Positions 33,688 to 61,810 of a DNA stretch of 64,000 nt are shown here, one piece after another. The stretch is from contig CAYNIC010000011.1 of the NCBI GenBank assembly GCA_964397465.1, positions 3,503-67,502 on the forward strand, read 5' to 3'. Source of the DNA: an uncultured Rhodospirillales bacterium (lineage in GTDB: Bacteria; Pseudomonadota; Alphaproteobacteria; JAWKYA01). The notes below the pieces were generated by a model. It did no database searches. It had not been told where the DNA came from and saw only the letters and a list, made by a program, of their open reading frames with translations. A program made the position numbers and the translations under genes. How positions within the stretch are numbered: the first letter of the stretch is position 1; each line of letters opens with the position of its first letter.

Positions 33688-33724
33688 GAAATTCCTTTCT
33701 AAGAGATCAAGAATAATCCCTACC

Positions 33725-35434: not shown

Positions 35435-35466
35435 AAAAATTCTCCTCAAGATGGGGTTAGAAAAAC

Positions 35467-37319: not shown

Positions 37320-37354
37320 GTCATGTCCTTTCGAGGGAAAACAAAGGCAAGAAA

Positions 37355-37585: not shown

Positions 37586-37594
37586 GGAACCTCC

Positions 37595-40087: not shown

Positions 40088-40111
40088 GAGAGTGTCTCCT
40101 TATAGAGGCGC

Positions 40112-40603
40112 TTAACGGATCAGGGATATTTGCTGAATGGCGTAGTGGGTTCCGGTGTCCAGCAGGCTGCGGCCGATGGCGTTCGCCGGCGACAAGCGAC
40201 GCTCGCGGTCCAAAATCTTGGCGCGCTGCTGCGTTTGGGCGATTGCGGCGCCGTTGTCGGCGAGGTCAGCATCCCGTTTGGCCAAGGCTTGTTCCGTCGC
40301 GTCGGCATGACGCGATTGCATCGCCTGTTGCAAGGCCGCCGTACTGCCGCCGTCATCATTGATGCCGCGCGCCGCCGCACTGGTGCGGGCGCCGCCCAAC
40401 TCGCGGCGTAACCCAAGGCGCCGGGTCGCTTGATCGGTCTCGAAGTTGTCGGCGATCAGCGAGCGTCGCCGCTGCAAGGACGCCAGTTGCTGCTGGGCAG
40501 CGAGGCTTTGCGCTTTCGCTTCGGCCCGGCGGGCGGGAAGATTCAGCGCCGTTTGGGCTGCTGTGGCGGCAAGCTGTGGAAGTAACGGGGTTGACGCGGC
40601 CAT
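40112..40603 (-). CDS. hypothetical virion protein (T7 gp13/gp14 position)
   Basis: 163-aa Ala/Gln-rich protein between the tubular protein B gene and the tail fiber gene. One-nt overlap coupling. Confidence 0.4.
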   Translation of the reverse strand: MAASTPLLPQLAATAAQTALNLPARRAEAKAQSLAAQQQLASLQRRRSLIADNFETDQATRRLGLRRELGGARTSAAARGINDDGGSTAALQQAMQSRHADATEQALAKRDADLADNGAAIAQTQQRAKILDRERRLSPANAIGRSLLDTGTHYAIQQISLIR

Positions 40604-42534
40604 CAGTCATTCACCTTAAGTTCGCAGTTGACGGAAAGAAGCGTGAAGGAAAAAGGATTGCTTTGGGTAATGCGCCACAGCGGTTCCAGCGCGCCGCGAT
40701 GCCAGCCCAAGGCCCGCACCGTGACATCGCCGGTATAGGCCGCCGGCGGTGAGTCAAGATTGACGCCGCCGATCGTCTGCAACGGAACCAATCTTGGTCC
40801 GCGGCCCACATCAACCATCAAGGCGGGGGTGTCTTTGATGCGGAAGGTGGCGCGGATCAGCCGCAAGGGCTCACCCTGAAGTTCTCCGTTGTCCGACGGC
40901 GGCAGGGGCTCGATGCTGTGGGTAAAGGCAAGACCTACTTCGATGCGGGTGGCGGTGGCGGCCAGAGAAATCACCCCGCCTTTGACCTTATAAAGGCCGA
41001 GCGGCCGGCCATCGGCGATGACCGTCACCCATTTGTCGTTGAGATGGGACAGCCCGCCCCAAATCGATTGGGCTTGTTCGGTTTCGCCCAACAAGGCGGC
41101 ATCACTGTTAAGTTGCGGATCAAATTTTTCGATCCGAAAATCGGCAAAACGTTTGGCCAAGGCATAGACGTCGCCGCCCACCACGGCGACGGCATGAAAC
41201 TCGCCGTCGGTTTCCAACCGCGTCCAGGCGGTGACATTCTCCGAGCGATAAAGGGTAAGGGCGCCGAGGCCGCCGTCGCTCATCACCACGTAAAGCACCC
41301 GCGACTTATCGGCGTAATCCATGTCGATCGGATCCGTCACCAGATGCGGAGCCAGCACCGAGAGGTCGCGGGCTTGGTAAGCCGCCTCGGCATCGGTATA
41401 AAGAAGTTCGCGAATTTGCCGGCCGCTGCGCGCGGCAAACAGGGTTGCGCCTTCAACCGCGCGGGGTGGTACGGTGCGATCAGGGTGTGAGCCGACGGTG
41501 GTTTGCCGTTTCGCCTGGACCGTGGCGGGAGATAACGGCTCGCCGGTGATCTGCCACTCGCCGCCGGTGGTCAAAACAAACAGCGTCAGACCGGAATGCA
41601 TCCCGCGAATGGCGTCGACCTGTTCCGACAACAATCCGAACTCGATCGCATCGTCATCCTCGCCGATGCCAAGATCAAAGTTGAACAGATCCGAAGTCCG
41701 CGACATCCAGATCCGGTTGGGGATCGACCGGGCGCCGCCGAACACCAACCGGTCTTGGGCGAAGGCGACGCTGGCGGGCCAGCCGCGATAGGGTGAAAAC
41801 GCCTGCTCGGACCAATCGGTGATGGCGGTGGTGTTGGGCAAGGACAGGGCCAGCGTCACCTTCACCGCCGTTGCCGAGGTGACCTCGATGATGGCGACAT
41901 CCTGGTTGGGCAGGCGTAAGTATGCGCCCAGCTGCGCCGGATCAAACACCGGTGCCGATGCGGTCAAGGTAATGGTGCCAGAGGTGCCGCTGGGCGTTAA
42001 GGTCACGGTATCTCCGGCGAAACGATAGAACGGATGATAGCGGCGTTTGGTTGTCGTATTGGCGACAAAGGTTAGATCCGCCAAAACCCAGGTTTGCGGC
42101 CCTAGACGGGTGAGGGTCTTTGGCGCAACATCGGGATGACAAATAAACAACGTGTCCGCACTTTGCGCCCAAGTCAGACGCTTGATCTGATCCGCCGTCC
42201 ACGGCGTGGCCACGGTGGCGATGACCGCATCATGGTGCAGGATGGTGATCTGCTGATGGGTGACGACCAACAGATAAGTCTGCTCGGCATTAAAGGCGAA
42301 ACCGATCAGACGGCCGGAGCCCGCGGCGATGGCGATATGACGCAGGCCAGGCCGGCGCGTCACGCCTCCGGTCGGCTGCACCAAAATATTGCGCAGTTTT
42401 TTTGCGGCGTTGCTGTACGACGCAAGATCGCCCCGGCCGTAAAGATCGCTCGATACTTCGCCGGCGGTGAAATTATTTTTGAGAACCCGCATGCGTCCCA
42501 TCTCAGCCTCCTCCAGTCCAGCCGGTAAGATCAA
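40603..42534 (-). CDS. tail tubular protein B (T7 gp12-like)
   Basis: N-terminus MRVLKNNFTAGEVSS...VQPTGGVTRRPGL parallels gp12 (NLKGGISQQP...GLQKRPP). Size 643 aa. Synteny after the tubular protein A gene. Confidence 0.65.
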   Translation of the reverse strand: MILPAGLEEAEMGRMRVLKNNFTAGEVSSDLYGRGDLASYSNAAKKLRNILVQPTGGVTRRPGLRHIAIAAGSGRLIGFAFNAEQTYLLVVTHQQITILHHDAVIATVATPWTADQIKRLTWAQSADTLFICHPDVAPKTLTRLGPQTWVLADLTFVANTTTKRRYHPFYRFAGDTVTLTPSGTSGTITLTASAPVFDPAQLGAYLRLPNQDVAIIEVTSATAVKVTLALSLPNTTAITDWSEQAFSPYRGWPASVAFAQDRLVFGGARSIPNRIWMSRTSDLFNFDLGIGEDDDAIEFGLLSEQVDAIRGMHSGLTLFVLTTGGEWQITGEPLSPATVQAKRQTTVGSHPDRTVPPRAVEGATLFAARSGRQIRELLYTDAEAAYQARDLSVLAPHLVTDPIDMDYADKSRVLYVVMSDGGLGALTLYRSENVTAWTRLETDGEFHAVAVVGGDVYALAKRFADFRIEKFDPQLNSDAALLGETEQAQSIWGGLSHLNDKWVTVIADGRPLGLYKVKGGVISLAATATRIEVGLAFTHSIEPLPPSDNGELQGEPLRLIRATFRIKDTPALMVDVGRGPRLVPLQTIGGVNLDSPPAAYTGDVTVRALGWHRGALEPLWRITQSNPFSFTLLSVNCELKVND

Positions 42535-43114
42535 ATCCGCCGGCGGTTTCTTCCTGGGCGTCGATCAGACGGGCGCGGCGAAATTCTTCCTCGGCGGCAC
42601 GGGCCAAGGCTTCGGCCCGGGATGAATTCTCGGTCAAAGGAATGCAGAACTCGGCCGCCAGGCGCGCGATCAGCACATGATCAAAGAACGGCGGAAAATC
42701 CGCTTCGCCGGGGCGAAAAATATAGGTCAGGATCACTTCATCGGCGTGGGCGTGAAGCCGCCGCTCGGCGATGCGGTAGGTAAGCCCGCGCCCGCGACGG
42801 CCGTTACCGGCGGAAAGGGCGCGAAGATAATCGCCGGGCAATTGAAACGCATAGGCATAGTCGGCGGGGGGCGAGGCCGCCAAGGGCGCAAGCCGCCGTT
42901 GCGCCGTGGCGAAATTCCACGGATGGGCGGAGAGCAGGGCGTCCCGCGTCGACGGATAAAGCAGGCTGGCCACCTCGGCGGCAGCGGAGCCTTCGTCAAA
43001 TCCTAAAATAGGCGCGGCGCCGATTTTCACCAGCGCTCGGGCACAAAGTTGAATGGCGCTCAGAGCCATGGCTCGTTGCCTTTCCCATAAAAAAGCTCCG
43101 CGGCGATGAACCAT
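42503..43114 (-). CDS. tail tubular protein A (T7 gp11-like)
   Basis: 203 aa. MALSAIQLCARALVKIGAAPILGFDEGSAAAEVASLLY...HPWNFA parallels the gp11 N-terminal pattern. Confidence 0.6.
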   Translation of the reverse strand: MVHRRGAFLWERQRAMALSAIQLCARALVKIGAAPILGFDEGSAAAEVASLLYPSTRDALLSAHPWNFATAQRRLAPLAASPPADYAYAFQLPGDYLRALSAGNGRRGRGLTYRIAERRLHAHADEVILTYIFRPGEADFPPFFDHVLIARLAAEFCIPLTENSSRAEALARAAEEEFRRARLIDAQEETAGGFDLTGWTGGG

Positions 43115-43152
43115 CGCCGGCGGAGCCGATCACAACAGAGAAAATAGATTTA

Positions 43153-43410
43153 TTAGTCGGTGTTCACGCTGCCGACGGCGGTCATGTCGGCGACATCGAC
43201 CGTGCCGTTCTGGCTGGAAGCGATCAGAAGAATGCCGGCGCCGCCGTTGACATTGGCGAGAATCATATCGCCTTTGCGCAGCATATCTACGGCGGGATTA
43301 AAATAGCCGTTGGTATCGACGATGTCGGCGGTATCGGTCGAGGCATAATGCCAAAGGGTAAAGCCGTTGGCATAGGCCAGCACCGAAAGGTTTCTGGCAA
43401 GATAGGCCAT
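43153..43410 (-). CDS. hypothetical phage protein
   Basis: 85-aa ORF between the capsid and tubular A genes. Confidence 0.35.
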   Translation of the reverse strand: MAYLARNLSVLAYANGFTLWHYASTDTADIVDTNGYFNPAVDMLRKGDMILANVNGGAGILLIASSQNGTVDVADMTAVGSVNTD

Positions 43411-43448
43411 GAAGATCTCCTTTATCTCTTTAAGCTAAGGGTGAAATT

Positions 43449-44273
43449 TTACGCTTCGCTGCACGGCAGGGTGACAAGACCGGTGCCATCGACCAGCACC
43501 GCGCCCAAGGACAGCGAGCAGCTGACGAACCACGCGGCCCGATCGTTGTGATAGGCGATGTCGGTGTTGACTTCCGATCCCACCGCGAGGGCAAGGGCGG
43601 TCTTGTGCCACCAATGGCACAGGCGGTGACCATTGCCGTCGAGGCCAAGGCCGGAATGGGGCATCCACAAGGTTCCCAGCCAGCGCTTGGCCTGGGTGCC
43701 GCGCCAGGGCAGATCGTCGCTGCCGACATAATCGGCATTGGCGAATTCCTGGATCATCAAGAGATCGGACCATTGTTTCCATCCCACCACGGCGTAACGA
43801 TCTCCGTCATCGGGCACATCGTTGCCGCCCAGGATGCCGAAGGCCTCCAGCACCTTTTGTTTGGTGAGACCGCCGCTAACCGTCGGAGTCAGATTGGCCG
43901 AGGTGTTCATCTGCGCCAAAATCAGCTCGTCGGTTTTGCGGCCCAAGGCATAGGCGCCGGCATTGGCCACCACCGCCCGCTCTTCGTTCTCGGTCTTAAG
44001 TTCGTCCAGGGCGTCCACCCATTCGCCGGCATAGTAATCCGACAGAAAACATTCGATCGGCGCGTGATCGATGTTCATCACCGGCACCTTGCCGTGTCGC
44101 GCTTTGGTCGAAGCGCTGCCCTTGCCGACTTTTTGAAACACGGTGGAGGCGCCTTTAACGCTGCCCTTGGCGCGAACGCAAGGGCGGAGCTTGGCGCCCG
44201 TACGCTGATAGGCTTCGTGAACTTCCTTTTCGAACTGCTTGATGAAAGCAGCATCAATGGAGGGTTTATTCAT
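43449..44273 (-). CDS. major capsid protein (T7-like podovirus type)
   Basis: 274 aa. Position between scaffold and tail tubular genes. Weak pattern similarity to gp10. Confidence 0.6.
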   Translation of the reverse strand: MNKPSIDAAFIKQFEKEVHEAYQRTGAKLRPCVRAKGSVKGASTVFQKVGKGSASTKARHGKVPVMNIDHAPIECFLSDYYAGEWVDALDELKTENEERAVVANAGAYALGRKTDELILAQMNTSANLTPTVSGGLTKQKVLEAFGILGGNDVPDDGDRYAVVGWKQWSDLLMIQEFANADYVGSDDLPWRGTQAKRWLGTLWMPHSGLGLDGNGHRLCHWWHKTALALAVGSEVNTDIAYHNDRAAWFVSCSLSLGAVLVDGTGLVTLPCSEA

Positions 44274-44394
44274 GGTGATCCTTTCAGAAAAAATAAACGG
44301 TTGAGTCCGGCCACGGGTTATCCGCGCAGGGGCGGGCTTGCAGCCGGATGAAGGAAAAAGACGGGCCGCCGCAACGGTTGTCCGTAATTAAGAC

Positions 44395-45132
44395 TTATGA
44401 ACTGGGGTAAAGACGGCGGAAGCCCTCGCTGACCTCGGCCACAAAGGCGGGGTCTTTGTGCTTCCAATAGCGGGGATCGCGCATCATCTTGGTCAGATCC
44501 TCTTCGGTTAAACTTGCAACCGCGGTGCCGCCACCGCCAAGCCGCGGCGGCGATCCGCTTTGCATCATGGCGTGAAGCGCCAGAACGCCGTCGCTGGTCG
44601 AGGCCAAGGCGTCGAACACGTCGCGCGGCAGGTGGGCCGTGCCCCAGGCGTTGAGTTGCCGGGCGATTTCGCGCCATGCCGTATCGCCGCCGAAATGGGC
44701 GATCAGTCGCTCGCGCTGTTTTTGCGCCTCGAATTCCGACGCCAGATCGGTGATCGCCGGCAGCATGCGTTCGCCGGCGAGATCGTAAACCAGCTGAGCT
44801 TGGCGCGGCGTGAAGTGGGCCGCGTGCAGGCGACCGTTGACATCCGGATCAATGTCCAGAAAATCGGTGCTAAGATTGATCTCGTAAGCATCGGGTGTGT
44901 CGGGGATACCGAGCGCCCGGCGGAAGGCTGCGGTCTCCGTCTCGTCGGCATCATCTCGCGGCACCCGCACCATGGTCGATAGTTTTCGCTCCAGCTCCAA
45001 ATAGGATCGCGCCAGTTTCGCCACATCGGGCGCGCCGGTTTGCGGGTCCAAAAATTTCTGGGGAATTTGCACCGTGTCGGATGAAGGGGCGGCGGGCGTA
45101 TCCGATGGTGTGGTCAGTAAACTCTCGGTCAT
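44395..45132 (-). CDS. capsid scaffolding protein (probable)
   Basis: Acidic, helical protein starting MTESLLTT. Position between portal and capsid. The long N-terminal extension of the ORF is Arg/Pro-rich and not credible. Confidence 0.45.
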   Translation of the reverse strand: MTESLLTTPSDTPAAPSSDTVQIPQKFLDPQTGAPDVAKLARSYLELERKLSTMVRVPRDDADETETAAFRRALGIPDTPDAYEINLSTDFLDIDPDVNGRLHAAHFTPRQAQLVYDLAGERMLPAITDLASEFEAQKQRERLIAHFGGDTAWREIARQLNAWGTAHLPRDVFDALASTSDGVLALHAMMQSGSPPRLGGGGTAVASLTEEDLTKMMRDPRYWKHKDPAFVAEVSEGFRRLYPSS

Positions 45133-45136
45133 GGCA

Positions 45137-46669
45137 TTATCCTTTTGTCGACGAAAGGGTTTGCGCCTCAACAGAGGCAGGTAAAATTTCAGAAGAAATC
45201 GCTGCTGGAACATCGGGACGTAACAGGCTCGCCGGCAGGTCCAGCATCTTGGCGGCCCATCTGGCGGCGGCCGGCGCATCCAAGGTCGCGGCGGCGTCCG
45301 GCCCCAACTGCTTGGCGATGTCCAGCCACGACAAGGCGCCTTGCGCCTCCAACTGGGCTTGCCGCCGCGCCAAGGGCGATCGGTATTGCAAGGTGATGGT
45401 GCGACCATCCAAGGTCAGGTTCGGCAATTCGCCGCGCCGGGATAAAATCGCCAAGGCCCGCGCCACCAACGGCGTCAAAAGTTCGGCCTGCAGCCGGCCG
45501 TAGGTTGCGCCCAATAACCGCGCGGTCTCCGCCGCCCGGTGCAGAACTTCGGTTGCGGTCATGCCCGGCGTCGCCACACTTGCCAGGCGGTCGGTCAGCA
45601 GACTGGAGCGGATCGCTTGCCGTAGGGTGGCAAGAGTCAAATCCGAGACATTGAAATTTCCCGGCACCTGCAAGGGCGTCAGGCCCGATGAGCCGACCGC
45701 CTTGGGAATGATGGTGCCCGGCACCAACCTCACCGTCGCCGGATTTAAAACACCGTCGTCATCGGCCTGCCAAATGCCGGTGACGGCGATGGCGGCGTTT
45801 TTCAGCGTCAACTCAACCACCTTGTTGGCGGTTTTGATATCGGGCAATGCCTTCATCACCGGCGAGCGGCCATAGGCCTCGCCCGGCGCTTTCATCCAGC
45901 GAAACGACAAAAAGGGCGATTGATCCAATCGCGCCTTGGCCAAAAGATGCGGGCCGTTGAATTTCTCCGCACCGCCTTCCAACACCGCGACGTAATCGTA
46001 ACCGTTGCCGGTCTCGCGGGGGACCACCGCTTCGATCACCGTGTAAAGACGATCGCTGTCGGTTGCGGCGGAAGCGGGAATCTCCGCTGCGGGAAAGCGG
46101 CTGTGCAGTTGCAGCCGGCTCAACCGATTGCGACGATAGGCGATATCCAACCTTCCCTCGGCGCCTTCCTCCAACACCACATCCCACAACGGCACGGCGG
46201 CAAAGCGAAAGGCGCTGGGTTGTCCCGGGGCGGTTTCTTCAAAGGACAAACAAGCCGTGCCCGACACCACCAAATCCAGAAAGCATTGATGAATCTCCAC
46301 CGCAAAATTCGAGCGATCGAAATGCTGCTGCAGAATCTCGGCGGCGCGATCGAGTTTCGGCGCCAGGTCGCCGTGCAGGTGTTCGGGAATTTCCCGGCCG
46401 GGGGCAAAGCCGAACCATCTGGCCCAGGGCGGCGTCAGTTCAGCCAGCAAACTGGCCGCCAATTGATCCACCGCATCGGGGGCGGTGCCGTCGAACAACC
46501 GCTCGCGGCTGGCGGCGGATAGACTGGAGGGCCCCGCTCCGGCAAAGGGCGTCTCATCCCGCGACGGCAAACTGTAGGCATAGCAGTCGCGCCACACCGA
46601 CTCCCAGGCGCTGCGCTGCATCTTGGCGCGGTGAAACCGGGCCATCACGCTTTCCGGCGTCATGATCAC
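45137..46669 (-). CDS. portal (head-to-tail connector) protein, T7 gp8-like
   Basis: 510 aa. N-terminal VMARFHRAKMQRSAWESVWRDCYAYSLPSR parallels the gp8 N-terminus. Position 5' of scaffold. Confidence 0.75.
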   Translation of the reverse strand: MIMTPESVMARFHRAKMQRSAWESVWRDCYAYSLPSRDETPFAGAGPSSLSAASRERLFDGTAPDAVDQLAASLLAELTPPWARWFGFAPGREIPEHLHGDLAPKLDRAAEILQQHFDRSNFAVEIHQCFLDLVVSGTACLSFEETAPGQPSAFRFAAVPLWDVVLEEGAEGRLDIAYRRNRLSRLQLHSRFPAAEIPASAATDSDRLYTVIEAVVPRETGNGYDYVAVLEGGAEKFNGPHLLAKARLDQSPFLSFRWMKAPGEAYGRSPVMKALPDIKTANKVVELTLKNAAIAVTGIWQADDDGVLNPATVRLVPGTIIPKAVGSSGLTPLQVPGNFNVSDLTLATLRQAIRSSLLTDRLASVATPGMTATEVLHRAAETARLLGATYGRLQAELLTPLVARALAILSRRGELPNLTLDGRTITLQYRSPLARRQAQLEAQGALSWLDIAKQLGPDAAATLDAPAAARWAAKMLDLPASLLRPDVPAAISSEILPASVEAQTLSSTKG

Positions 46670-46983
46670 TCTCCCAATAAAATTTTGCGGGCGGGGATAA
46701 GGCGCGCCGATTTGCCGGCGGTAATGGCAGGCTGCTCCAGCACGCCGGTCAGTCCGGTTTTGACGGTGGTGGCAAGGCCGCGGCGAATCCGGCGGTGCGG
46801 GTGAAGATCTTCCTTCACCGCGGCGGATAGGGGCGGCGGTGCCGGAACCGGCGGTGGGGTGGGGGCGATAAAGCGGCTGGCCATCAAGGATCTCCCTGAA
46901 GCAGGTGGAACGAACGGGACAAAGGGTGGAAAAAACAAAACCCGCCGCGGTTTCCCGGGGCGGGTGAGAAGAGGCGGAGTCAT
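46666..46983 (-). CDS. hypothetical phage protein (first gene of structural operon)
   Basis: Pro-rich small ORF. ATGA overlap with the portal gene. Start may be the internal MASRF. Confidence 0.3.
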   Translation of the reverse strand: MTPPLLTRPGKPRRVLFFPPFVPFVPPASGRSLMASRFIAPTPPPVPAPPPLSAAVKEDLHPHRRIRRGLATTVKTGLTGVLEQPAITAGKSARLIPARKILLGE

Positions 46984-46998
46984 GGCCTCATGTGTTCC

Positions 46999-47027
46999 TA
47001 TATAGTTCTCTTTTCAGTTCCTGTCAA
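46999..47027 (-). promoter_or_regulatory. consensus sigma70-type promoter reading into the structural operon
   Basis: On the minus strand: TTGACA, a 17-nt spacer, then TATATA. Confidence 0.5.
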
Positions 47028-47109
47028 CGGTATTTTTTCTTAAAAAATGAAAAAGAAGCTGGCCGCCTGTGGGCAAGGTTTCCTTCCGGCTGAATCCCCA
47101 GCGTCTATT

Positions 47110-47562
47110 TCAAGAACGGCTTACCCGACCCGCGGGATTTAAAAGACGTCCCGCGTTCCTGTCCGTCAGGGATAAAAATAACCGCCATGGGGTCCAAATA
47201 AATCGGCGCCGCAGGTGCAAAATATTTTTTACCACGGCAACGCAGGTCATCGGCCGCAGCAGGTTAAGACAAGATCGATGGCGCCGCGGGGTGCGGGTCA
47301 TCGGCATCATCACGGGAATCGGCACCGCACCCTTTGCGGTATAGAATCGAATCATCTCCGCAACGGAGTAGGGAGGAAGGAGTTTGATCATCAGACGGCC
47401 GCACAGGGGATCCACCATGATCCATCCGCTGGCGATTCGATAAAGGATAAAGCAATGGCGGAAGCCTCGTTTCAACAGATAAAACCATGGAAATTCCAGC
47501 TCGCCGCGAAATACCACGATCGCCGTAACCCCGCGGCGCGGACGATCAGAGTCGGCGGTCAT
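47110..47562 (-). CDS. hypothetical protein (early/regulatory region of element)
   Basis: 150 aa starting MTADSDRP. ATGA overlap with the upstream gene. The longer 244-aa ORF has an Arg-rich, non-credible extension. Confidence 0.4.
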   Translation of the reverse strand: MTADSDRPRRGVTAIVVFRGELEFPWFYLLKRGFRHCFILYRIASGWIMVDPLCGRLMIKLLPPYSVAEMIRFYTAKGAVPIPVMMPMTRTPRRHRSCLNLLRPMTCVAVVKNILHLRRRFIWTPWRLFLSLTDRNAGRLLNPAGRVSRS

Positions 47563-47924
47563 CGGACGATTCCCTTGGCCCGCAGCGGCGGCGTCAAACG
47601 CTCTAACGCTTCGCGCCACAGCTTGGCGAAGTTCGCCTCTTCGCCCCGGGCATAGGGCGACGGAGCGCGGCCCATGCGGCCGTAGTGCATCAGGATTTTG
47701 ACATGAGCCCGGCGCAGGCGCCGTCGCTCGACCAGCCGCACCAGCTCGCGCACCACGTCGTCGGGCTCGCAGGGTTTGGGGGTGGATTTTCCCGCCTCGA
47801 ACCGGGCGCCGTCGGCGCGGGCGGTCAGGCAGGCGACGCACCAAAACCAGCAGGCTAAACTCGTCGGGAAAGGCTCCCCAATCGTTGTTCCCTTGCCGGT
47901 GGTGATAAGCTTCAACTGGCCCAT
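47559..47924 (-). CDS. hypothetical protein, possible Cro/CII-like regulator
   Basis: 121 aa, divergently transcribed from the repressor gene. Cys cluster CWFWCVAC. Confidence 0.4.
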   Translation of the reverse strand: MGQLKLITTGKGTTIGEPFPTSLACWFWCVACLTARADGARFEAGKSTPKPCEPDDVVRELVRLVERRRLRRAHVKILMHYGRMGRAPSPYARGEEANFAKLWREALERLTPPLRAKGIVR

Positions 47925-47969
47925 GGCTTTGCTCCCTTGAAGGGCTTTTTTCTCTCGCGGTAAACGAGT

Positions 47970-47984
47970 GTTCTATTATTGTTC
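47970..47984 (+). promoter_or_regulatory. alphaproteobacterial LexA-type SOS box (GTTC-N7-GTTC)
   Basis: GTTCtattattGTTC lies in the divergent intergenic region between the regulator gene and the repressor gene. A TTCAC-N7-GTGAA palindrome sits at 48058-48074. Confidence 0.5.
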
Positions 47985-48084
47985 GCTATTAGAGGGAGAG
48001 TCTATATGCACAAATACCCATGTCAAGCCTGAATCAGAATTTGATCCTAGTGACATTTTTCACCTGAATTGTGAAGGTGTTCCC

Positions 48085-48717
48085 ATGTTGAGACATGCGG
48101 ATATATGGCGGGGGATTGACCGTTTGGCTGCGACACATAATTTGTCGCCCTCGGGCTTGGCTCGAAAGTCAGGATTGGATCCCACCACCTTTAACAAATC
48201 AAAACGGGTTGCCCGGGATGGCAAGCCGCGTTGGCCGACGACGGAAAGCCTGGCGAAGATTCTGTCGGCCACCGGCGCCGGCATGAACGAATTCGTCTCA
48301 TTGATGAGCGAGACTCCCGGCACCTCGGTAACCCAGCGGATCCCGGTCATCGGCTATACCCAAGCGGGTCAGGCCGGTTACTTCGACGACGCCGGTTATC
48401 CCGCGGGCAAGGGCTGGGACGAGGTGGAGTTCCCCGATGTCGGCGATCCTCACGTTTATGCGCTGGAGATCAACGGCGACAGCATGATGCCGGTTTATCG
48501 CGACGGCGACGTGGTTGTGGTCTCGCCCCAGGCGCAGATCCGCCGCAACGACCGGGTGGTGCTGAAGACCGTCGAGGGCGAGGTGATGGCCAAGGTGCTC
48601 AGCCGCCGGTCGGCCAAGAAGATCGATCTGCATTCGCTCAACACCGATTTCCCCGATCGCAGCCTGGACAGCGACGACGTGCTGTGGATCGCGCGGATTA
48701 TCTGGGCCAGCCAATAG
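48085..48717 (+). CDS. phage repressor, HTH plus S24 (LexA-like) peptidase domain
   Basis: N-terminal HTH region (SPSGLARKSGLDPTTFNK). C-terminal S24 domain with GDSM and a following Lys (ALEINGDSMMPVYRDGDVVVV...K). Confidence 0.8.
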   Translation: MLRHADIWRGIDRLAATHNLSPSGLARKSGLDPTTFNKSKRVARDGKPRWPTTESLAKILSATGAGMNEFVSLMSETPGTSVTQRIPVIGYTQAGQAGYFDDAGYPAGKGWDEVEFPDVGDPHVYALEINGDSMMPVYRDGDVVVVSPQAQIRRNDRVVLKTVEGEVMAKVLSRRSAKKIDLHSLNTDFPDRSLDSDDVLWIARIIWASQ

Positions 48718-53803: not shown

Positions 53804-54181
53804 TTACGAGCCGACAATCACCACCACATAGCCGTCGGGATCACGCAGCCAGCACTCATGGTGGCCGGCATTGGGGTTAAAGCGGCGTTCCTCGATGATC
53901 TCGATCTTCAATCCCTTGGCGCGTTTGATCACCGCATCGATAGCGTCGGTGTGAAACCACAACAAAACGCCATAGCCGTGGGGCGCCGCATCGGGATCGC
54001 CCAAATTGGGATGATCGTGATCACCCCAATGATGGAGCTGCAGGATCATCTCGCCGGTTGCCGGATCGATCAGTTGTTCGTACTCATCCCCGCCATGACC
54101 GCTGATGCAGCCGAGAAGTTTTTGATACCAGCGGCTGCTGGCGGGAACGTCTTTGACGGCGATCAGTGGTTGCGGTTTCAT
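53804..54181 (-). CDS. VOC (glyoxalase/bleomycin-resistance) family protein
   Basis: 125 aa with a VOC fold pattern and metal-binding His/Glu. Confidence 0.75.
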   Translation of the reverse strand: MKPQPLIAVKDVPASSRWYQKLLGCISGHGGDEYEQLIDPATGEMILQLHHWGDHDHPNLGDPDAAPHGYGVLLWFHTDAIDAVIKRAKGLKIEIIEERRFNPNAGHHECWLRDPDGYVVVIVGS

Positions 54182-57009
54182 GTCTTGTCCTCGATCGATG
54201 ATGTCTCATGTGGCGCTCGCTCGTGCACAAAAAATTCCCGCACGGCGGTGACCGCCTCGGCCAACCCAAGCCGCGAGATCGCAACGCCTTCGGGAAAGGC
54301 GGTGGTAAGGCGGCTGGGCAGCCGTGAATCAAGCAACACAAACACACCGCGATCGGTGGTGCGGCGGATCAACCGCCCGAAGGCTTGGCGCAGTCGCAGC
54401 CGGGTCAGCATATCGGCATAGGCCGCCTTGCCGCCGGGAAAAACCTCGGCCCGCGCCTTGTACAAAATATCCGGCCGCGGCCACGGCACCCGGTCGAACA
54501 CCACCAGACGCAAGGAACGCCCCGGTACATCGACGCCGTCGCGCACCGCATCGGTCCCGAGTAGACAGGCGTCTTCCTCGGCACGGAAAATATCGATCAA
54601 GGTGGCGGTGTCGACGCCGTCGACGTGTTGCGCGTAGAGGGGAATATTTGCTGCCTCCAACGGCGCTGCGATCCGCGCTTGTACCTCGCGCAGTCGGCTG
54701 ATGGCGGTGAACAGGCCAAGCCCGCCGCCGTGGGAGGCTTCGAACAGGGCGCGATAGGCCGCCGCCATCTGTCCCGGATCCTTGCCATCGATGTTTTTCA
54801 CGATCAGCACCCGGGTTTGACGGGGATAATCAAAGGGTGAGGGCACGCGAACCAGCAAGGCCGGCCTGGCGAGATGCCGCGTGCCGGTACGCGCCTCGGC
54901 GGCGATCCAATCTTCATCAACGCGGCCGGTGCGATCGGCCAAGGTCGCCGAGGTAATCACCCCGCCATGGACGCCGGCTTCGATCGCCTGGGCGAAGGGC
55001 TGCATCGGATCGCGCCAATGACGGTAAAGACCGATGTCGATGTCGCGGCCCTCGATCCGGTCGACCGCGCACCAATCGACGAACTCGGGCGGCGTTTCGC
55101 TGCGCAGACTTTTGAGCATCGATCGCCAGGCGGCGATGGGGGCAAGGGCTCGGTGGCTAAGCCCGCGCACCACCGCTTCGATGCGGATGCGGGTCGCGAC
55201 GTCGATCTCGCCGGCCTCGCTGCCGGTCAGCCGCGCGGCGATGGCGGTGCGAAGCTGGGTCAAAGGTTCCTCCAACCGCGCCAAGGCAAGATCAAGCGCC
55301 GTCGCCGCCTCCAGCAGGCCGTCAACCGGATCGGTGGTGGGCGCTTCGAGGCCATAAGGACCATCCCGATCGGCGACCCGGGCGTAAACCTGGGTGCGAA
55401 TATGCGCCAGGAATACTTCGGTCGGTCCGCGCGGTGCATCGTCGGCCAGGCGTTTGATCCACCCGTCACCGGGAAGCGCGCGGGCGGAGTCCAGCGCATT
55501 GCTCAACGCCACCTCCGCCGCGGTATTGCCGGCGGCAAGATCTTCGGCGCGGCGCTTCAAGCCGCGGGCACGGCCCCGTCCACCCTCGGCACCCAACAAC
55601 CAGCGGCGAAGTTCGGCGGCTTCGATTCCGGAGAGCGCGGCCGAGAAGGCGCTATCGGCGGCATCAAACAAATGATGACCTTCATCGAACACGATCCGTG
55701 TCGGCAATTGACCGTCTTCGCCGCGCGTCGCACTGATCAAGGTGAGGGCATGGTTCGCCACCACCAGTTTCGCCCGGGCGGCCCTGCGGATGGTGCGCTC
55801 GATGAAACACTTATTATAGTGCGGGCAGGCGGCGTGGATGCATTCGCCGCGTCGATCGGCCAGGCTAAGGCTGCGCCGTGTTCCCAAGAGATGCACCAAC
55901 CATCCGGGAAAATCACCGCCGATCAAATCACCGTTGCGCGTCGCGCCGGCCCAGCGGGTGATAAGACCCAAAGCCACCGCATCGGAGACGCGGCCGCCGG
56001 GTCCAAGCGAGATCAATCCGCGCACCGCCTCTTCCAAATTCAGCAGGCACAGATAATTCTCTCGGCCCTTGCGCACCACGGCGCGCAAGGATTTTTCCAC
56101 CGGATCGGGGTAAAGCCGATCAAGCTCGCTATCCAATTGGTGTTGCAGGTTGCGGGTAAAGGTCGACAGCCACACTGTGCCGTCGTTCTTCTCCGCCCAC
56201 AGACTGGCGGGGGCGATATAGCCCAAGGTCTTGCCGACACCGGTGCCGGCTTCGGCCAGGATCACCGTCGGTGCCGCCAGGGCCGGCGGCGGTTGAAACG
56301 CGGCGCTTAACGCTGCGGCGTAGTCGGCTTGCGGCGCACGCACCTCCGCATCCTTGCCCAGCAGCTCGGCCAGGCGCCGCGTGGCCTCGATCGGGGAAAC
56401 ACCGATCTGTCCGGGCGGCGGGGGCGGTTCGTGCTCGGCGATCTCGGGCAGACGGCGCCATACTTCAAATCCGGAGACATGTCCCGACGGTGCTGCATCG
56501 GCGGGTGAAGATTTCACCCGGCCGTGATCCAGCGCTTGAAGGACCCAGGGTCCCCAACTCCACCCGCCGCGCTCCATGGCGGCGGCAAGATCGATCATGT
56601 CGCGCCGCTCGGCAAAGGAGTGAGTTTGCGCCAATTCGGTTAAGAGCAGGCGCGTAATCTCGATCAAGCTTAAGGCTTCGCGTGCAGGCGTCGACGGCGG
56701 CGGCTGCTTCATCGCCATGGCCAATCCCCGCGGTGTCGACAAGGCGAAGTTGGCGGGACGCACGAAGGCGAAGAGTTCCAAAACATCAAGCGCGGGAAAA
56801 CTGTCGATCCCCAACCGCCGGGCTGTCGCCAGGCGGTGGCATAGAATGGGGACGAGGCCGGCATCAACTCTTAATGCGGCGTCGCCATGGCTGAGGGCTT
56901 CGATCGTTCCGTCGGAAGATAACAGCACGGCATCCCGCGCCGAGGCCACCAAGACAGGTGCATCGGGCAAAGATATATCAGGGGAAGGGACGTGGTCTGG
57001 CGCGCGCAT
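54178..57009 (-). CDS. DinG/Rad3-family ATP-dependent DNA helicase with N-terminal extension
   Basis: AEAGTGVGKTLGYIAPA Walker A, a DEAD_2-type VFDEGHHL motif and a C-terminal helicase_C_2 region. 943 aa. ATGA overlap with the VOC gene. Confidence 0.8.
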   Translation of the reverse strand: MRAPDHVPSPDISLPDAPVLVASARDAVLLSSDGTIEALSHGDAALRVDAGLVPILCHRLATARRLGIDSFPALDVLELFAFVRPANFALSTPRGLAMAMKQPPPSTPAREALSLIEITRLLLTELAQTHSFAERRDMIDLAAAMERGGWSWGPWVLQALDHGRVKSSPADAAPSGHVSGFEVWRRLPEIAEHEPPPPPGQIGVSPIEATRRLAELLGKDAEVRAPQADYAAALSAAFQPPPALAAPTVILAEAGTGVGKTLGYIAPASLWAEKNDGTVWLSTFTRNLQHQLDSELDRLYPDPVEKSLRAVVRKGRENYLCLLNLEEAVRGLISLGPGGRVSDAVALGLITRWAGATRNGDLIGGDFPGWLVHLLGTRRSLSLADRRGECIHAACPHYNKCFIERTIRRAARAKLVVANHALTLISATRGEDGQLPTRIVFDEGHHLFDAADSAFSAALSGIEAAELRRWLLGAEGGRGRARGLKRRAEDLAAGNTAAEVALSNALDSARALPGDGWIKRLADDAPRGPTEVFLAHIRTQVYARVADRDGPYGLEAPTTDPVDGLLEAATALDLALARLEEPLTQLRTAIAARLTGSEAGEIDVATRIRIEAVVRGLSHRALAPIAAWRSMLKSLRSETPPEFVDWCAVDRIEGRDIDIGLYRHWRDPMQPFAQAIEAGVHGGVITSATLADRTGRVDEDWIAAEARTGTRHLARPALLVRVPSPFDYPRQTRVLIVKNIDGKDPGQMAAAYRALFEASHGGGLGLFTAISRLREVQARIAAPLEAANIPLYAQHVDGVDTATLIDIFRAEEDACLLGTDAVRDGVDVPGRSLRLVVFDRVPWPRPDILYKARAEVFPGGKAAYADMLTRLRLRQAFGRLIRRTTDRGVFVLLDSRLPSRLTTAFPEGVAISRLGLAEAVTAVREFFVHERAPHETSSIEDKT

Positions 57010-57116
57010 GGCGGCGGAGTATAGGCGAGATTCATCCGTCTTGGACGGTTAATCTCATGGCGCAGGGAGGGGTAGTGTTGAGGTGAGGTTGCCGAGATAT
57101 CGGCGCCGCCGATAGG

Positions 57117-57386
57117 TTAAGGCGGCTTGTTAAAATCCATCTGATTGTTGTTGGACGACTGATTGGTCTTCAAATCGCCGCGTGCCGGACGGACGGTTTC
57201 ATCCTGGGTCGGGGTCGGCGCGGGCCGTAGAGACGGCGGCTTGTGATCCCGGGGCGTCGGCTGAGTGAGGCCCAAAAGCTGATCCAAATTGTCCGCAGCT
57301 CTACCGGCGGACGCAAGGCTGATCATCAACGCAAAAGCGCCGATGCCGCACAGGACCAGTCCACGGATAGAGAGCCTCAGGAGCAT
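57117..57386 (-). CDS. hypothetical small secreted/membrane protein
   Basis: MLLRLSIRGLVLCGIGAFALMISLASAG hydrophobic N-terminus, then a Pro-rich region. Confidence 0.35.
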   Translation of the reverse strand: MLLRLSIRGLVLCGIGAFALMISLASAGRAADNLDQLLGLTQPTPRDHKPPSLRPAPTPTQDETVRPARGDLKTNQSSNNNQMDFNKPP

Positions 57387-57644
57387 GCCCACCTCGTCAG
57401 GGCACCGGCTTAATTCAATAAAACCAGCACCCAAAGTTCATTCATATCTCTTAAAACATGCGCTTTGTAAGGGAAAAAAGCAAACTAACAGTATTAGATA
57501 AAATTAGAGTAAATAAAACGGTTCAGCAAGGGTGATCTATTTGAATAATCAGGAAATTCTTGTCTAACGGACGTTTAAAGGCGAAGCGGCTTTGTTGTGG
57601 AAACGAAACATTGTTGCGCGCTAAATTTTTCACGATGAGGGGAA

Positions 57645-57685
57645 TAAACAAACGGGCACCCTTAAAGGATGCCCGTTTGTTGTTT
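57645..57685 (-). terminator. hairpin plus T-tract terminator downstream of the Sel1 gene pair
   Basis: ACGGGCA...TGCCCGT stem. T-rich on both strands. Confidence 0.5.
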
Positions 57686-57702
57686 AGCCGATCATCGAAG
57701 GT

Positions 57703-57737
57703 CTAGTCGGCTCTTGTGATCCGCCCTTCGACCTTGG
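57703..57737 (+). repeat. 35-bp exact direct repeat of the 3' end of the 5'-nucleotidase gene (copy A)
   Basis: ctagtcggctcttgtgatccgcccttcgaccttgg is identical to 59308-59342. Confidence 0.75.
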
Positions 57738-57739
57738 TC

Positions 57740-58366
57740 TTACTCTCCGCAGTCACGATAGGTGGATTCGCGGCACTTTTCGGCCATGGCCTTGGCTTCA
57801 CTGACTTGCTGAGGCGTTAAGTCTGACTCCGTAGCGGTGAGAATTTTCTGTGCCAGATTGGCAATATCAGAATTGGTTGCCGTTTCGCTGGCTATCGAGG
57901 TCCACATATAGGTGCGAACATCATCGCGAGGAACGCCCTTTGCGGCAGAATACAACAAGCCAAGTTGTATTTGTCCCAAGGCATATCCTTGCACCGCCGC
58001 CAGCTTAAACCATTTTCGTGCTTCTTGATAATTCGGCACGACGCCGTCACCTTGGCGATAAATAACGCCGATCGTAACCTGCACGGTAGGATGATGGGCT
58101 TGTTTGTTGGCGAGACTGAACCACTTGGCGGCTGCAGCATGATCCCGCGTCACACCTTCGCCTCGATAATACATCGTGCCCAAGGTAATTGAAGCTTGAT
58201 CCATGCCACCTTCAGCCAAGGGCTTGAGAATGGAAAGTGCCGTGGCATAATCTTTGCGGTCGTAAGCGGCTTTGCCGTCTTGCAAAGGGCCAGTCGCTGC
58301 AGGGGCGGCAAAAATGAATCCCCCCAGAATTATCACGGTCAACCGATAGGCCATTCTCCTTTTCAT
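57740..58366 (-). CDS. Sel1-repeat protein (secreted)
   Basis: Signal peptide, then Sel1 repeats (GTMYYRGEGV, AAKWF..AA.QG). C-terminal CRESTYRDCGE. Confidence 0.7.
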   Translation of the reverse strand: MKRRMAYRLTVIILGGFIFAAPAATGPLQDGKAAYDRKDYATALSILKPLAEGGMDQASITLGTMYYRGEGVTRDHAAAAKWFSLANKQAHHPTVQVTIGVIYRQGDGVVPNYQEARKWFKLAAVQGYALGQIQLGLLYSAAKGVPRDDVRTYMWTSIASETATNSDIANLAQKILTATESDLTPQQVSEAKAMAEKCRESTYRDCGE

Positions 58367-58370
58367 GAGC

Positions 58371-59096
58371 TCATTCCCCGCAGTCTTGATAGTCGGGATG
58401 GCGGCACTTCAGCAGCATGATGTTAGCTTCAGCAAGTTGCGACGGCGAAAGCCGCTGCTTTAAAGCTGGGTAATTTTTCGCTGCATTAGAATCTTTATCG
58501 GCGCTAAGACTGAACCACATATAGGCACGGGCGAGATTGGATTTAACACCATAGCCATCACGATAGATCACGCCGAGATTATTTTGTGCCTGGGCGTCGC
58601 TCTGCTTTGCGGACAACAAAAACCATTTCCGCGCCTCTACATAGTTTTTGGGCGTGCCTTGGCCCAGCCAATGCATCTGGGCGACCTGGAATTGAGCGTC
58701 GGGATTACCCCATAAGGCGGCCAGGCGAAACCACTTCAAAGCTTCCCGATAATCTTGGGGAACACCGGTCCCGTTTTTGTATAGCACCCCCAGATTGCTC
58801 TGCGCCATTACGTTTCCTGTTTCGGCGGCCAGGGTGTACCATCGGATGGCTTCGTTATAATCTTGTGGCACACCTTCGCCATTGCTGTAGGCACGGCCAA
58901 GATTATACTGCGCCATGGCATCACTTGTTTGCGCCAAGGTTCGCCAAATGGAGACAGCGGTTTGGAAATCACCCCGTTGAGAAGCAGCATAGGCCTCTTC
59001 CATCGGTGTCGCTGCTAAGCCGGGACGTGCGAGAAAAACAAGCGCGATTAAATATACAAAAGTAATCAACATCCGCCGCTGAAGACGTTTTGTCAT
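58371..59096 (-). CDS. Sel1-repeat protein (secreted), tandem paralog
   Basis: Sel1 repeats. C-terminal CRHPDYQDCGE. Start ambiguous (59156 or 59096). Confidence 0.7.
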   Translation of the reverse strand: MTKRLQRRMLITFVYLIALVFLARPGLAATPMEEAYAASQRGDFQTAVSIWRTLAQTSDAMAQYNLGRAYSNGEGVPQDYNEAIRWYTLAAETGNVMAQSNLGVLYKNGTGVPQDYREALKWFRLAALWGNPDAQFQVAQMHWLGQGTPKNYVEARKWFLLSAKQSDAQAQNNLGVIYRDGYGVKSNLARAYMWFSLSADKDSNAAKNYPALKQRLSPSQLAEANIMLLKCRHPDYQDCGE

Positions 59097-59261
59097 GTCG
59101 ATGTCGGGTGTAGCGGAGCGAAAAGCTGTTCTCATCCTGACCCCTTGACAATGCACTTGCCATTAACAAACGTATATCGAGTAAAATATTATAGTATGCT
59201 ACTATAAATTATAAGATCAAGAAAAGCGTTTTTAAGAGGTGATAACTTCGCAGTAACAAAA

Positions 59262-59295
59262 AGGCACCGTGGTTGCGGTGCCCTTTAGTCATGCC
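59262..59295 (-). terminator. rho-independent terminator of the 5'-nucleotidase gene
   Basis: GGCACCG-tggttg-CGGTGCC with a T-run on the minus strand. Confidence 0.6.
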
Positions 59296-59307
59296 ATCAG
59301 TATAAGC

Positions 59308-59342
59308 CTAGTCGGCTCTTGTGATCCGCCCTTCGACCTTGG
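59308..59342 (+). repeat. 35-bp direct repeat copy B (equals the last 10 codons plus stop of the 5'-nucleotidase gene)
   Basis: Identical to 57703-57737. Encodes ...VEGRITRAD*. Confidence 0.75.
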
Positions 59343-60945
59343 GCTCGACCGCGCCGCCTTGCTGCGATTTGATGTAATCGCGCAGCACGTCTTCAAGATT
59401 GGCGCCGCCGTCGCGAACGTCGGTCGCCTTGGTCTTGAACATGGCGTAACCGTCACCACCAGTGCGAACGAAATCATTGGTGACAATGCGATAGCTGGCT
59501 TTGGTGTCGAGCGGTTTGTAGCTGCCGTCGGCTTGGCGGATCTCCACCTTGGTGATGCGCTTGCCGGCGGGCTGTTTGGCCGACCAGGTATAGCGGGCGC
59601 CGGCAACCTGGGCGAAACGTCCGGTGCCTTCGTTCTTGGCATCCTCAGCCTTGCTGACGCCGTTTTCCAACGCGGCCCACAACTCGGCACCCGTTAGTTT
59701 GAAAGTCGAGACAGTATTGGAGAACGGAAGAACCTCCAGCACGTTGCCAAAAGTAATCTGACCTTTGGGAATGCTGGTGCGGATGCCGCCGCCGTTTTGG
59801 ATGGCGACTTGCGTGCCTTCGTTCTTGGTCTTCCACAGCAAACTGTCGGCGATCAAATTGCCGAGATTGCATTCGACGTGACGGCAAACGGCGCGATCAC
59901 CGTTCAGCTCGACCTTGGCTTCGCCGACGGCCTGGGTGCGCAGCTCGGCCAAGGGCTTCGCCATCTCGTTGACCATGGCCTGGACGGCGGCATCTTGAGG
60001 AACGGATGAATCCAGCAAGATCGGGTTGCCTTCCCATTTCGTCAGCACGCCGTTGTTGTCGAAGGTCGCATCCAAGTGACCCAGGAAGATGCTGGCGTAA
60101 TAAGCCTGCACGATCAGCGATGGGGCGCCCGATGGTTGCTTGACCACGATCGGATATTTGCCTTCCGCCGCCGCATCGGTATTCGACAATAGCGTGTGGC
60201 TGTGGCCGCCGACGAAAATGTCGACGCCGTCGACCGTCTTCGCCAATTTTTCGTCCTCGGCTTCGCCGATATGGGACAGCACGATGATCTTGTTGATCTT
60301 GGCCGCCTTCATTTTATTGACCTCGGCTTGCAAGGTCTGCTTCAGCGGCAAGAACTTCACCTTACCCGGGCTGGCCAGGGTTGGCGTATCGGGCGTGACC
60401 AAGCCGATGACACCAATGGATTGGCCGCCGACCTCGATCACCATGCTGGGCGCAAACCGCCGTTGCAGGGAGGGTTCTTGATCGACATTGACGTTGGCGG
60501 TCAGGAGCGGCGGCTGCAACCCGTCAAAAAACTTGGCAATTTCAGGCACACCGTCGTCAAACTCGTGGTTGCCGAAGATGATGGCGTCATAGCCCATACG
60601 ATTGACGAACGGCTTGAGGGCGTCGCCTTTGGCCTTGGTATAGAAGAGCGATCCTTGGAAGCGATCGCCGGCATCCAGCACCAAGACGTTGGGGGCGCTG
60701 GCGCGAAGTTCCTGAATCTTGGAATAGATCCGCGCATAACCGCCAAAGCATTTTTTGTCGGTCGCGTCCTTCGGTGTGCAGTAGCTGCCCGAGCGCGTGA
60801 CTTGGTCCACCCGCGCGTGAACGTCATTGGTGTGCAGAATACGAAGTGTATAGTCCTGGGCGCCGGCACTCATAGAGATGCTGAAGGCGCCGATAGATAA
60901 AGCCAAAGTCGCCGGTGCGACCGCAGCGCGTAATAAAGTAAACAT
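59308..60945 (-). CDS. bifunctional 5'-nucleotidase/UDP-sugar hydrolase-family metallophosphoesterase (periplasmic)
   Basis: Signal peptide. Calcineurin-like motifs (ILHTNDVHAR, GDRFQGS, GNHEFD). 5'-nucleotidase C-terminal domain. Confidence 0.8.
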   Translation of the reverse strand: MFTLLRAAVAPATLALSIGAFSISMSAGAQDYTLRILHTNDVHARVDQVTRSGSYCTPKDATDKKCFGGYARIYSKIQELRASAPNVLVLDAGDRFQGSLFYTKAKGDALKPFVNRMGYDAIIFGNHEFDDGVPEIAKFFDGLQPPLLTANVNVDQEPSLQRRFAPSMVIEVGGQSIGVIGLVTPDTPTLASPGKVKFLPLKQTLQAEVNKMKAAKINKIIVLSHIGEAEDEKLAKTVDGVDIFVGGHSHTLLSNTDAAAEGKYPIVVKQPSGAPSLIVQAYYASIFLGHLDATFDNNGVLTKWEGNPILLDSSVPQDAAVQAMVNEMAKPLAELRTQAVGEAKVELNGDRAVCRHVECNLGNLIADSLLWKTKNEGTQVAIQNGGGIRTSIPKGQITFGNVLEVLPFSNTVSTFKLTGAELWAALENGVSKAEDAKNEGTGRFAQVAGARYTWSAKQPAGKRITKVEIRQADGSYKPLDTKASYRIVTNDFVRTGGDGYAMFKTKATDVRDGGANLEDVLRDYIKSQQGGAVEPKVEGRITRAD

Positions 60946-61130
60946 GATTTTTTCCCCTCATCTTAAGGCCGCATCCCCTCTCGGTCGGCCTCGCGTGTGC
61001 CGACCCTAGCAGCCTTTAAAGAGGTCGTCACCCCAACTCCAATCTCGGCTTTGATCTGGGCTCTGATCTGGGTCGTGATCACGGAACTTCATTTTGCCGC
61101 GTTAAGGCGGGTTGCGAGGTTGCGCCGACC

Positions 61131-61810
61131 GTGTTAGACACCGCCCAACTGGGTCGATTGCAGGCGCTTTGCCTTGGCGTCTCGCCGTTTTTTTTGGGGC
61201 GTTGTGCCGCTTTCAGGCCCAAAGACACCAAATGTGGGGATAAGTCGGACGTGGCTGCCGAAGGCTCGGGTTCAAACGCTATAGCGCGCCGATATGCGGC
61301 GGCATTATTCGATCTTGCGGGTGACCGTAAGGTCCTGGACGCTGTGGCTGCGGATCTTAAGGCCTTAAAGGCAGCTTTGGGGACAAGCGAGGATCTGCGA
61401 CGCCTGGTCGCAAGCCCGATGATTTCCCGGGCCGACCAAGCCAAGGCGGTGGATGCCTTGGCGGTACGGGCCAAGGCCCACGACCTGACCCGGAATTTTT
61501 TGGGCCTTCTGGCCCGGAACCGTCGCTTGGGTACCCTGAATGCGACGATCAACGGATTTCTGGCCAAATTGGCCGAGGCTCGCGGTGAAGAAACCGCTGA
61601 AGTAACAACAGCAAAGCCGCTCTCCGACGCGCAACGCGCTATGGTAACGGCCAGCTTGAAACAGGCAGTCGGCCGCGCCGTAACGGTGACGGAAACTGTC
61701 GACCCCGCCATTCTTGGCGGGCTGATCGTTAAGGTGGGCAGTCGAATGGTCGACGGTTCGCTGAAGTCGAAACTGCAAAGACTCGAACGCGCGATGAAAG
61801 GGAACGGCTG

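Follow-up and report, generated by a model that had tools for sequence, protein, structure and literature searches.

A putative old, integrase-less Sel1-repeat islet at the 3' end of a 5'-nucleotidase gene, with direct repeats probably homogenised after insertion

The element e14 (and phage 21) resides in icd of Escherichia coli K-12, where a replacement 3' end at the proximal border keeps the gene intact, the displaced original end persists as the non-coding relic icdC at the distal border, and recombination across both copies restores a single chimeric gene (PMC13626634; Hill et al., 1989, cited there). A locus of similar layout is described here from a 64,000-nucleotide stretch of DNA (hereafter the window) of contig CAYNIC010000011.1, assembled from an uncultured Rhodospirillales bacterium: a 5'-nucleotidase gene is followed by a 1.6 kb cassette of two Sel1-repeat genes, referred to as Sel1A and Sel1B, and the cassette lies between exact copies of the last 35 bp of the nucleotidase gene, the proximal (P) copy being the gene end and the distal (D) copy lying just beyond Sel1B. 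Judged by this layout, e14 in icd is the closest analogue, minus the integrase. Both inserts sit in the 3' end of a gene that remains intact (545 amino acids, aa, in the nucleotidase) and are bordered on both sides by gene-end direct repeats; e14, however, measures 15 kb, encodes its own integrase and excisionase and undergoes SOS excision, whereas the Sel1 cassette has no recombinase and no sign of current mobility, and its repeat copies appear to have been homogenised. The e14 duplication spans ~165 bp, compared with ~35 bp (perhaps ~90 bp originally) at the Sel1 cassette. In the reading that we favour, to which we assign a probability of roughly 0.65, the locus would be an old integrase-less islet of e14-like layout whose repeats became identical secondarily.

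Genomic islands and islets with gene-3'-end repeats share with the Sel1 cassette the target-derived repeats, the atypical GC content, the presence/absence polymorphism and the surface or secreted cargo, but the cassette has no integrase in or beside the element and is known from one insertion site and in one copy. Integrase-less derivatives of islands exist as CIME-type (cis-mobilisable) elements. Insertion sequences (IS) and transposons likewise lie between direct copies of target sequence, but IS target-site duplications are typically of 2–14 bp. An IS or transposon was discarded as a model for the Sel1 cassette, in which the duplication measures 35–38 bp (probably ~90 bp originally) and which has no transposase and no terminal inverted repeats at its ends. 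Rejected too was an integron gene cassette: the 3' border is a copy of the target-gene end abutting the Sel1B stop codon and not an imperfect-palindrome attC, as judged without a formal attC model, and no integrase was found among the large ORFs near the locus.

The repeat and the cassette in the window

All genes at the locus lie on the minus strand. The 35-mer CTAGTCGGCTCTTGTGATCCGCCCTTCGACCTTGG occurs in exact copies at 57703–57737 and 59308–59342, in agreement with an earlier note on this DNA, made from the sequence alone, according to which the last ten codons and the stop codon of the nucleotidase gene recur perfectly (35/35); lengthened to 38 bp, the repeat is identical at 37 of 38 positions. 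The P copy (59308..59342, minus strand) comprises the last 32 nt and the TAG stop codon of the nucleotidase gene and could be aligned with the P and D copies of relatives. The D copy (57703..57737, minus strand) is a non-coding relic of the nucleotidase 3' end, and homologous D copies are found in L094, L096, L102/L105 and L104 (L numbers denote contigs or loci of the comparison). Its adjacency to the distal Sel1 gene holds as previously described, but it lies 2 nt, and not 3 bp, past the Sel1B stop codon (57740–57742).

The pair is the sole long exact direct repeat of the window, in which no third copy was found with up to 3 mismatches allowed; the chance expectation is none, and 0 of 100 shuffled sequences contained a match. 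A degenerate 28-nt pattern of the repeat matched this locus (L105, L107 and L110) and eight single sequences without nucleotidase homology in the metagenome collection, and had 0 matches in the viral collection. A dispersed family, of the type of repetitive extragenic palindromes (REP) or miniature inverted-repeat transposable elements (MITE), was rejected on the basis of this distribution, and the pair's standing as a feature of this locus, on which the original interpretation depended, is upheld. A scan of positions 57000–61200 against Rfam yielded no match.

The target gene (59308..60945, minus strand) is intact and encodes a 545-aa protein with the Pfam domains Metallophos and 5_nucleotid_C. 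Sel1A (254 aa; 58371..59135, minus strand) and Sel1B (204/208 aa; 57740..58366, minus strand) both score above the gathering threshold of Pfam PF08238 (cutoff 30.7 bits), the former with 148.8 bits, an E-value of 2e-44 and four repeats, and the latter with 63.5 bits, an E-value of 2e-17 and two repeats. The best matches of Sel1B in the PDB are Sel1-repeat proteins, and the cassette proteins match Sel1-like repeat proteins there with E-values from 1e-53 to 1e-15. The description of the pair as paralogous, secreted Sel1-repeat proteins stands as far as the repeats and the paralogy (32% identity) are concerned; secretion is probable, the basis being N-terminal hydrophobic segments, such as that of Sel1A, read by eye from the sequence.

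Sel1A (...CRHPDYQDCGE), Sel1B (...CRESTYRDCGE) and the 384-aa Sel1 protein of the second cassette type described below all terminate in a C-x7-C motif of the form ...C(R/L)xxxY(R/Q/K/H)DCGE, located at 58371–58406 and 57740–57775 of the window and at 1545–1578 of L105. The cassette proteins have Pfam PF08238 and PDB matches in common with known Sel1-like repeat proteins, among them E. coli CFT073 c5321/EsiB (PDB 4BWR), Helicobacter Hcp (1OUV) and proteins of Legionella and Oxalobacter, but differ from them in this C-terminal motif (...C..x..Y.DCGE), which is missing from the more distant Sel1B homologues retrieved (at most 42% identical). It may form a disulphide cap at the C-terminus that only this small family has.

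A hairpin terminator follows each copy of the repeat, as the earlier note had proposed. The proximal hairpin, AAAGGGCACCG-CAACCA-CGGUGCCUUUUU (59254..59286, minus strand; -25.1 kcal/mol, z -4.3), belongs to the first cassette type (type I) and is identical between the window and L096 at 24 of 24 positions, and the distal one (57640..57681, minus strand) folds with -34.1 kcal/mol and z -7.8. Both have U-rich tails and were found by folding; a simple terminator scan listed neither. The region between the proximal hairpin and Sel1A (59136..59253, minus strand) is an AT-rich spacer with a GC content of ~0.44 that includes the promoter region of the cassette, with a sigma-70-like match at 59235–59208. 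Within it, a block of ~50 nt stands out as near-invariant between the window and L096 amid diverged sequence, and it contains a perfect 7-3-7 palindrome, TATAGTAGCATACTATA, at 59190–59206. The block probably serves the Sel1 genes as an operator or as part of their promoter.

Empty and occupied sites in relatives

The comparison set consisted of ten species-level relatives from metagenomes, with four lineages in which the site is empty and four further lineages that carry the cassette. The window nucleotidase forms a 90% cluster with five other proteins, encoded in five other lineages on contigs L082–L093, where the gene order is atpH, nucleotidase, an open reading frame (ORF) of ~90 aa, helicase and a glyoxalase-like gene. 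Contigs L107 and L110, found by a DNA scan, show the nucleotidase, the ~90-aa ORF and the helicase. On all of these contigs the nucleotidase is followed directly by the terminator and Sel1 genes are missing, so that the comparison of related genomes suggested in the earlier note bears out its claim of an insertion at the nucleotidase 3' end with the gene end kept: relatives with an at least 90% identical nucleotidase show the empty site. The sequence after the stop codon in the empty-site contigs is homologous to the window sequence past the D copy, the distal hairpin (57647–57681) included, and for this reason the distal terminator is regarded as the ancestral nucleotidase terminator. An attB-like unoccupied site is therefore present in close relatives (L082–L093, L107 and L110), with a flank continuous with the distal flank of the window, and this alignment delimits the extra DNA, which reaches from the proximal terminator through the D copy.

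The insert has a GC content of 0.505, and the GC content at third codon positions (GC3) of the Sel1 genes is 0.53 in the window, against 0.63–0.74 in neighbouring genes; across three lineages, the values are 0.47–0.55 for the Sel1 genes and 0.61–0.74 for the flanks. The insert is compositionally foreign. These data bear on an alternative in which the Sel1 genes are ancestral at this position, a later local duplication placed the gene end and terminator beyond Sel1B, and the empty sites are all deletions. Such a history would agree with the occurrence of occupied sites on both sides of the deepest supported split, which means that occupancy may be ancestral in the sampled group, with the proximal terminator being a paralogue of the distal one, and with a character that no syntenic outgroup polarises. 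We consider it rather unlikely: in every lineage, the Sel1 genes lie 0.1–0.2 below the flanks in GC3, Sel1 genes are missing beside the more distant nucleotidase loci, and there are two unrelated versions of the cassette's left half, a finding more in keeping with imported DNA. Among those distant loci, the nucleotidase of the nearest species in a scan of GTDB genomes is 57% identical and lies in another synteny, and the outgroups P0002 and P0004 (59–60% identical) show no synteny. Since the group lacks syntenic rooting, the choice of an insertion over ancestral genes with a later duplication rests on composition and on the relic D copy.

The cassette is found at the same spot as type I in L096–L101 and L104, as type II in L102, L103 and L105, and as a decayed type II in L094 and L095. 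Type I (window, L096 and L104) is characterised by the hairpin GGGCACCGCAACCACGGTGCC, the conserved promoter block and the 254-aa Sel1A, and type II (L102/L105 and L094) by a 384-aa Sel1 protein and by a hairpin and a promoter unrelated to those of type I, while Sel1B and the D copy are common to both. The window is colinear with L096/L098 and with L104 over the whole cassette, at 75–77% nucleotide identity; the Sel1A orthologues are 86% (L096) and 92% (L104) identical, and the Sel1B orthologues at the same locus 79, 73 and 71%. Between the window and L096, the synonymous divergence (dS) amounts to 0.35 for Sel1A, 1.05 for Sel1B, 0.56 for the nucleotidase and 0.81 for the helicase, and between lineages it ranges from 0.35 to 1.3 in cassette genes and from 0.5 to 1.0 in flanking genes. 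Since divergence between lineages is as great in the cassette genes as in the flanks, the cassette is old and not recent. The ratio of non-synonymous to synonymous divergence (dN/dS) is ~0.2 for Sel1A and ~0.12 for Sel1B, and both genes are therefore under purifying selection.

This age bears directly on the possibility of a recent insertion, by site-specific recombination or by an integration that duplicated ~35 bp of its target, of which the perfect repeat would be the untouched footprint. The exact repeat, unique in the window, the foreign composition of the insert and the empty sites of relatives are all compatible with such an event, which is nonetheless very improbable: orthologous cassettes occupy the identical junction in four other lineages with a dS of 0.35–1.3, as old as the flanks, and the repeats have diverged in the other occupied lineages. 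The use of the exact repeat as a fresh mark of insertion, as in the earlier note, fails on the same evidence. Also contrary to recency, the collections searched contain the cassette neither at a second locus nor in a phage or plasmid: close relatives of Sel1B occur at this locus only, viral contigs contain none, and a search of the plasmid collection with the cassette (blastn, distant mode) returned no match. Neither is there a recombinase, a transposase or a terminal inverted repeat. The insert was correctly described as encoding no recombinase, and according to the ORF list and Pfam it contains two Sel1 ORFs and the spacer, with no transposase or integrase.

Cassettes of the second type also show signs of decay. 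In L094 (2931–3572; 667 bp in L094/L095), the cassette has a signal-peptide-like start and, compared with L105, internal deletions as well as frameshifts; of Sel1B, no more than the last ~40 codons can be read, the frameshifted Sel1 remnant ending in ...AYRDCGE; its sequence reads as pseudogenisation in situ and not as a clean excision. In L102, the nucleotidase beside the type II cassette (3–1628) is called as two ORFs of 450 and 78 aa, which suggests a frameshift near the 3' end and thus a pseudogene or an assembly error.

An assembly error could also be invoked for the perfect repeat of the window, if the assembler had joined occupied and empty haplotypes or collapsed reads; the window does come from a metagenome contig, and related strains share samples. 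This explanation is barely credible, however, since at least ten samples yielded the same architecture in independent assemblies, the Sel1B and atpH proteins of the window are also present on a separate 68-kb NCBI/Logan contig, and a 35-bp repeat at a spacing of 1.6 kb is not typical of a k-mer chimera.

Homogenised repeats and the founding event

The D copy abuts the Sel1B stop codon in every occupied lineage. In L096, the P and D copies are separated by six mismatches and one indel, and in L102/L105 they differ at 6 of 36 positions. In L094, the edges of the D copy match the D type of L096 (a GCCGA... start and an extra T in the ...CTTAA end), and its inner 23 bp, ACCCGCGCC, are those of its own gene end and differ at four positions from the window repeat, a patch that marks a conversion tract. 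In the window, a GGG codon and a TAG stop codon specific to this lineage are found in both copies. With a divergence of ~17% per site, a rate taken from the other lineages, the calculated probability of 35/35 identity is ~0.0015. Given the age of the cassette, the diverged copies elsewhere, the patch in L094 and this low probability, the identity of the window copies is best explained by intrachromosomal gene conversion in which the coding copy overwrote the relic, and we infer it to be unrelated to recency. In the literature on concerted evolution of island-flanking repeats nothing relevant was found.

The distribution of alleles was assessed on neighbour-joining (NJ) trees of the 3' part of the nucleotidase gene and the 5' part of the helicase gene (760–810 nt), the rooting of which is uncertain owing to the lack of synteny in the outgroups. 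The window groups with L094 and L082 at 98.5–100% bootstrap, and L085, L086, L088, L098 and L102 group together at 100%. Empty, type I and type II alleles are found on both sides of the deepest split of the group, and the polymorphism therefore predates it, having been resolved either by repeated precise loss or by alleles moving between lineages through recombination in the flanks. A scan for a breakpoint next to the cassette, by sliding-window identity along the 3' end of the nucleotidase gene, gave a noisy signal.

The scattered alleles could also be the work of an element that is still mobile, with an unlinked recombinase using the last ~35 bp of the nucleotidase gene as att site, inserting and excising the Sel1 module and transferring it from species to species. 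Such cycles, or selection on the att site, would keep the repeats identical (in the window and partly in L094), and the repeats would decay where mobility has been lost (L096 and L102). The scatter of the three alleles over the tree, the variation in repeat identity with lineage and the presence in one sample (3300006056) of the occupied L105 together with the empty L107 and L110 are in line with this scheme. It is highly improbable, both as to the movement itself and as to the upkeep of the repeats by it: site-specific recombination leaves sequence outside the crossover core unhomogenised, the patch in L094 is internal and not a reset of the whole copy, and cassette divergence tracks flank divergence. 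In addition, a search for a neighbouring integrase came out negative, with no integrase domain among the large ORFs of the neighbouring ~30 kb (22–54 kb; Pfam and PHROGs) or in the gene calls of L081 around the locus. If true, the scheme would explain both the scattered alleles and the identical att repeats kept in some lineages.

Returning to the old, integrase-less islet, the extent of the original duplication may be read from L096. Matched to a profile of the ancestral terminator flank, the proximal flank of L096 reaches 15.3 bits at the same offset from the stop codon, a score equalled by 0 of 500 shuffles, and the proximal flank of the window is homologous to that of L096. On the strength of this match, the founding duplication probably included the gene end and the terminator, ~90 bp in total. 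A length of ~90 bp weighs against a target duplication of the transposase type, and by analogy fits an element with a replacement end, as e14 in icd, or a single crossover of circular DNA.

In the proposed course of events, the extreme 3' end of the 5'-nucleotidase gene would have received a foreign segment of lower GC content before today's species-level lineages split, and this segment would have brought its own promoter and one or two Sel1-repeat genes with probably secreted products. A duplication of the final ~35 bp of the gene, probably extending over the terminator as well (~90 bp), would have accompanied the event and produced the layout gene, end and terminator', promoter, Sel1A, Sel1B, end and ancestral terminator. 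It may have been a site-specific or a homology-driven integration, the recombinase, if any, having been lost or never carried on the element. At least some of the empty sites would stem from recombination across the two repeats or from an exchange of alleles between lineages via the flanking homology, and later gene conversion would have made the two copies of the window identical again. Site-specific recombination or target duplication, the mechanisms named in the earlier note, are not directly evidenced by any observation, and the exact repeat is not a fresh footprint of the insertion.

Several points weigh against this account. No recombinase gene or remnant is present in any version of the cassette, which leaves the founding mechanism a conjecture. 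The window's own proximal terminator has no match to the ancestral profile, so that the ~90-bp duplication is visible only through L096. RecA-dependent exchange is close to its lower length limit with a repeat of 35 bp, and in the window itself conversion is indistinguishable from a renewed duplication. Some internal nodes of the NJ trees, built on 760–810 nt, are weak (36–60%), and no syntenic outgroup roots the group, the nearest being 57–60% identical with other neighbours.

Neighbouring genes and implications

Between the ancestral terminator and the helicase gene (54178–57009, minus strand) lies a small ORF (57117–57434, minus strand) without a Pfam match, present in all relatives with a length of 90–105 aa. 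It encodes one hydrophobic segment and evolves fast, with 64% aa identity and a non-synonymous divergence (dN) of 0.28 relative to L096.

Further away, positions 33725–48717 hold a block of podovirus (T7-like) structural, packaging and lysis genes in which no integrase or replication genes were seen. It comprises an S24 repressor-like gene (47968–48717, plus strand) and genes for the portal (45137–46669), scaffold (44395–45408), capsid (43449–44273), tail tubular proteins (42503–43114 and 40603–42534), a tail fibre with a CBM_5_12 domain (37595–40087) and the large terminase (35467–36960), as well as a holin-like ORF (33725–34345). The S24 gene followed by the portal gene occurs in the same position in the empty-site relative L088, and in L082 the S24 gene is seen ahead of the end of the retrieved locus. 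The block has no relation to the Sel1 cassette and may represent either a defective prophage that has been conserved or a particle cluster that has been domesticated; as a source of recombinase it was rejected, being present in empty-site relatives as well and having no integrase. It adjoins a gene (32386–33750) for a 454-aa protein with a RelA_SpoT synthetase domain, which may be a gene of the small-alarmone-synthetase type derived from a phage or a defence system.

That an insert is recent does not follow from a perfect direct repeat around it; here, the insert is as old as the species split. The locus provides a compact example of a gene end regenerated by an insertion without an integrase, of a three-allele polymorphism across species and of the concerted evolution of a 35-bp relic. 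For annotation, two conserved Sel1-repeat genes under selection, the products of which are probably secreted, can be added to the accessory genes of this uncultured Rhodospirillales-like group.

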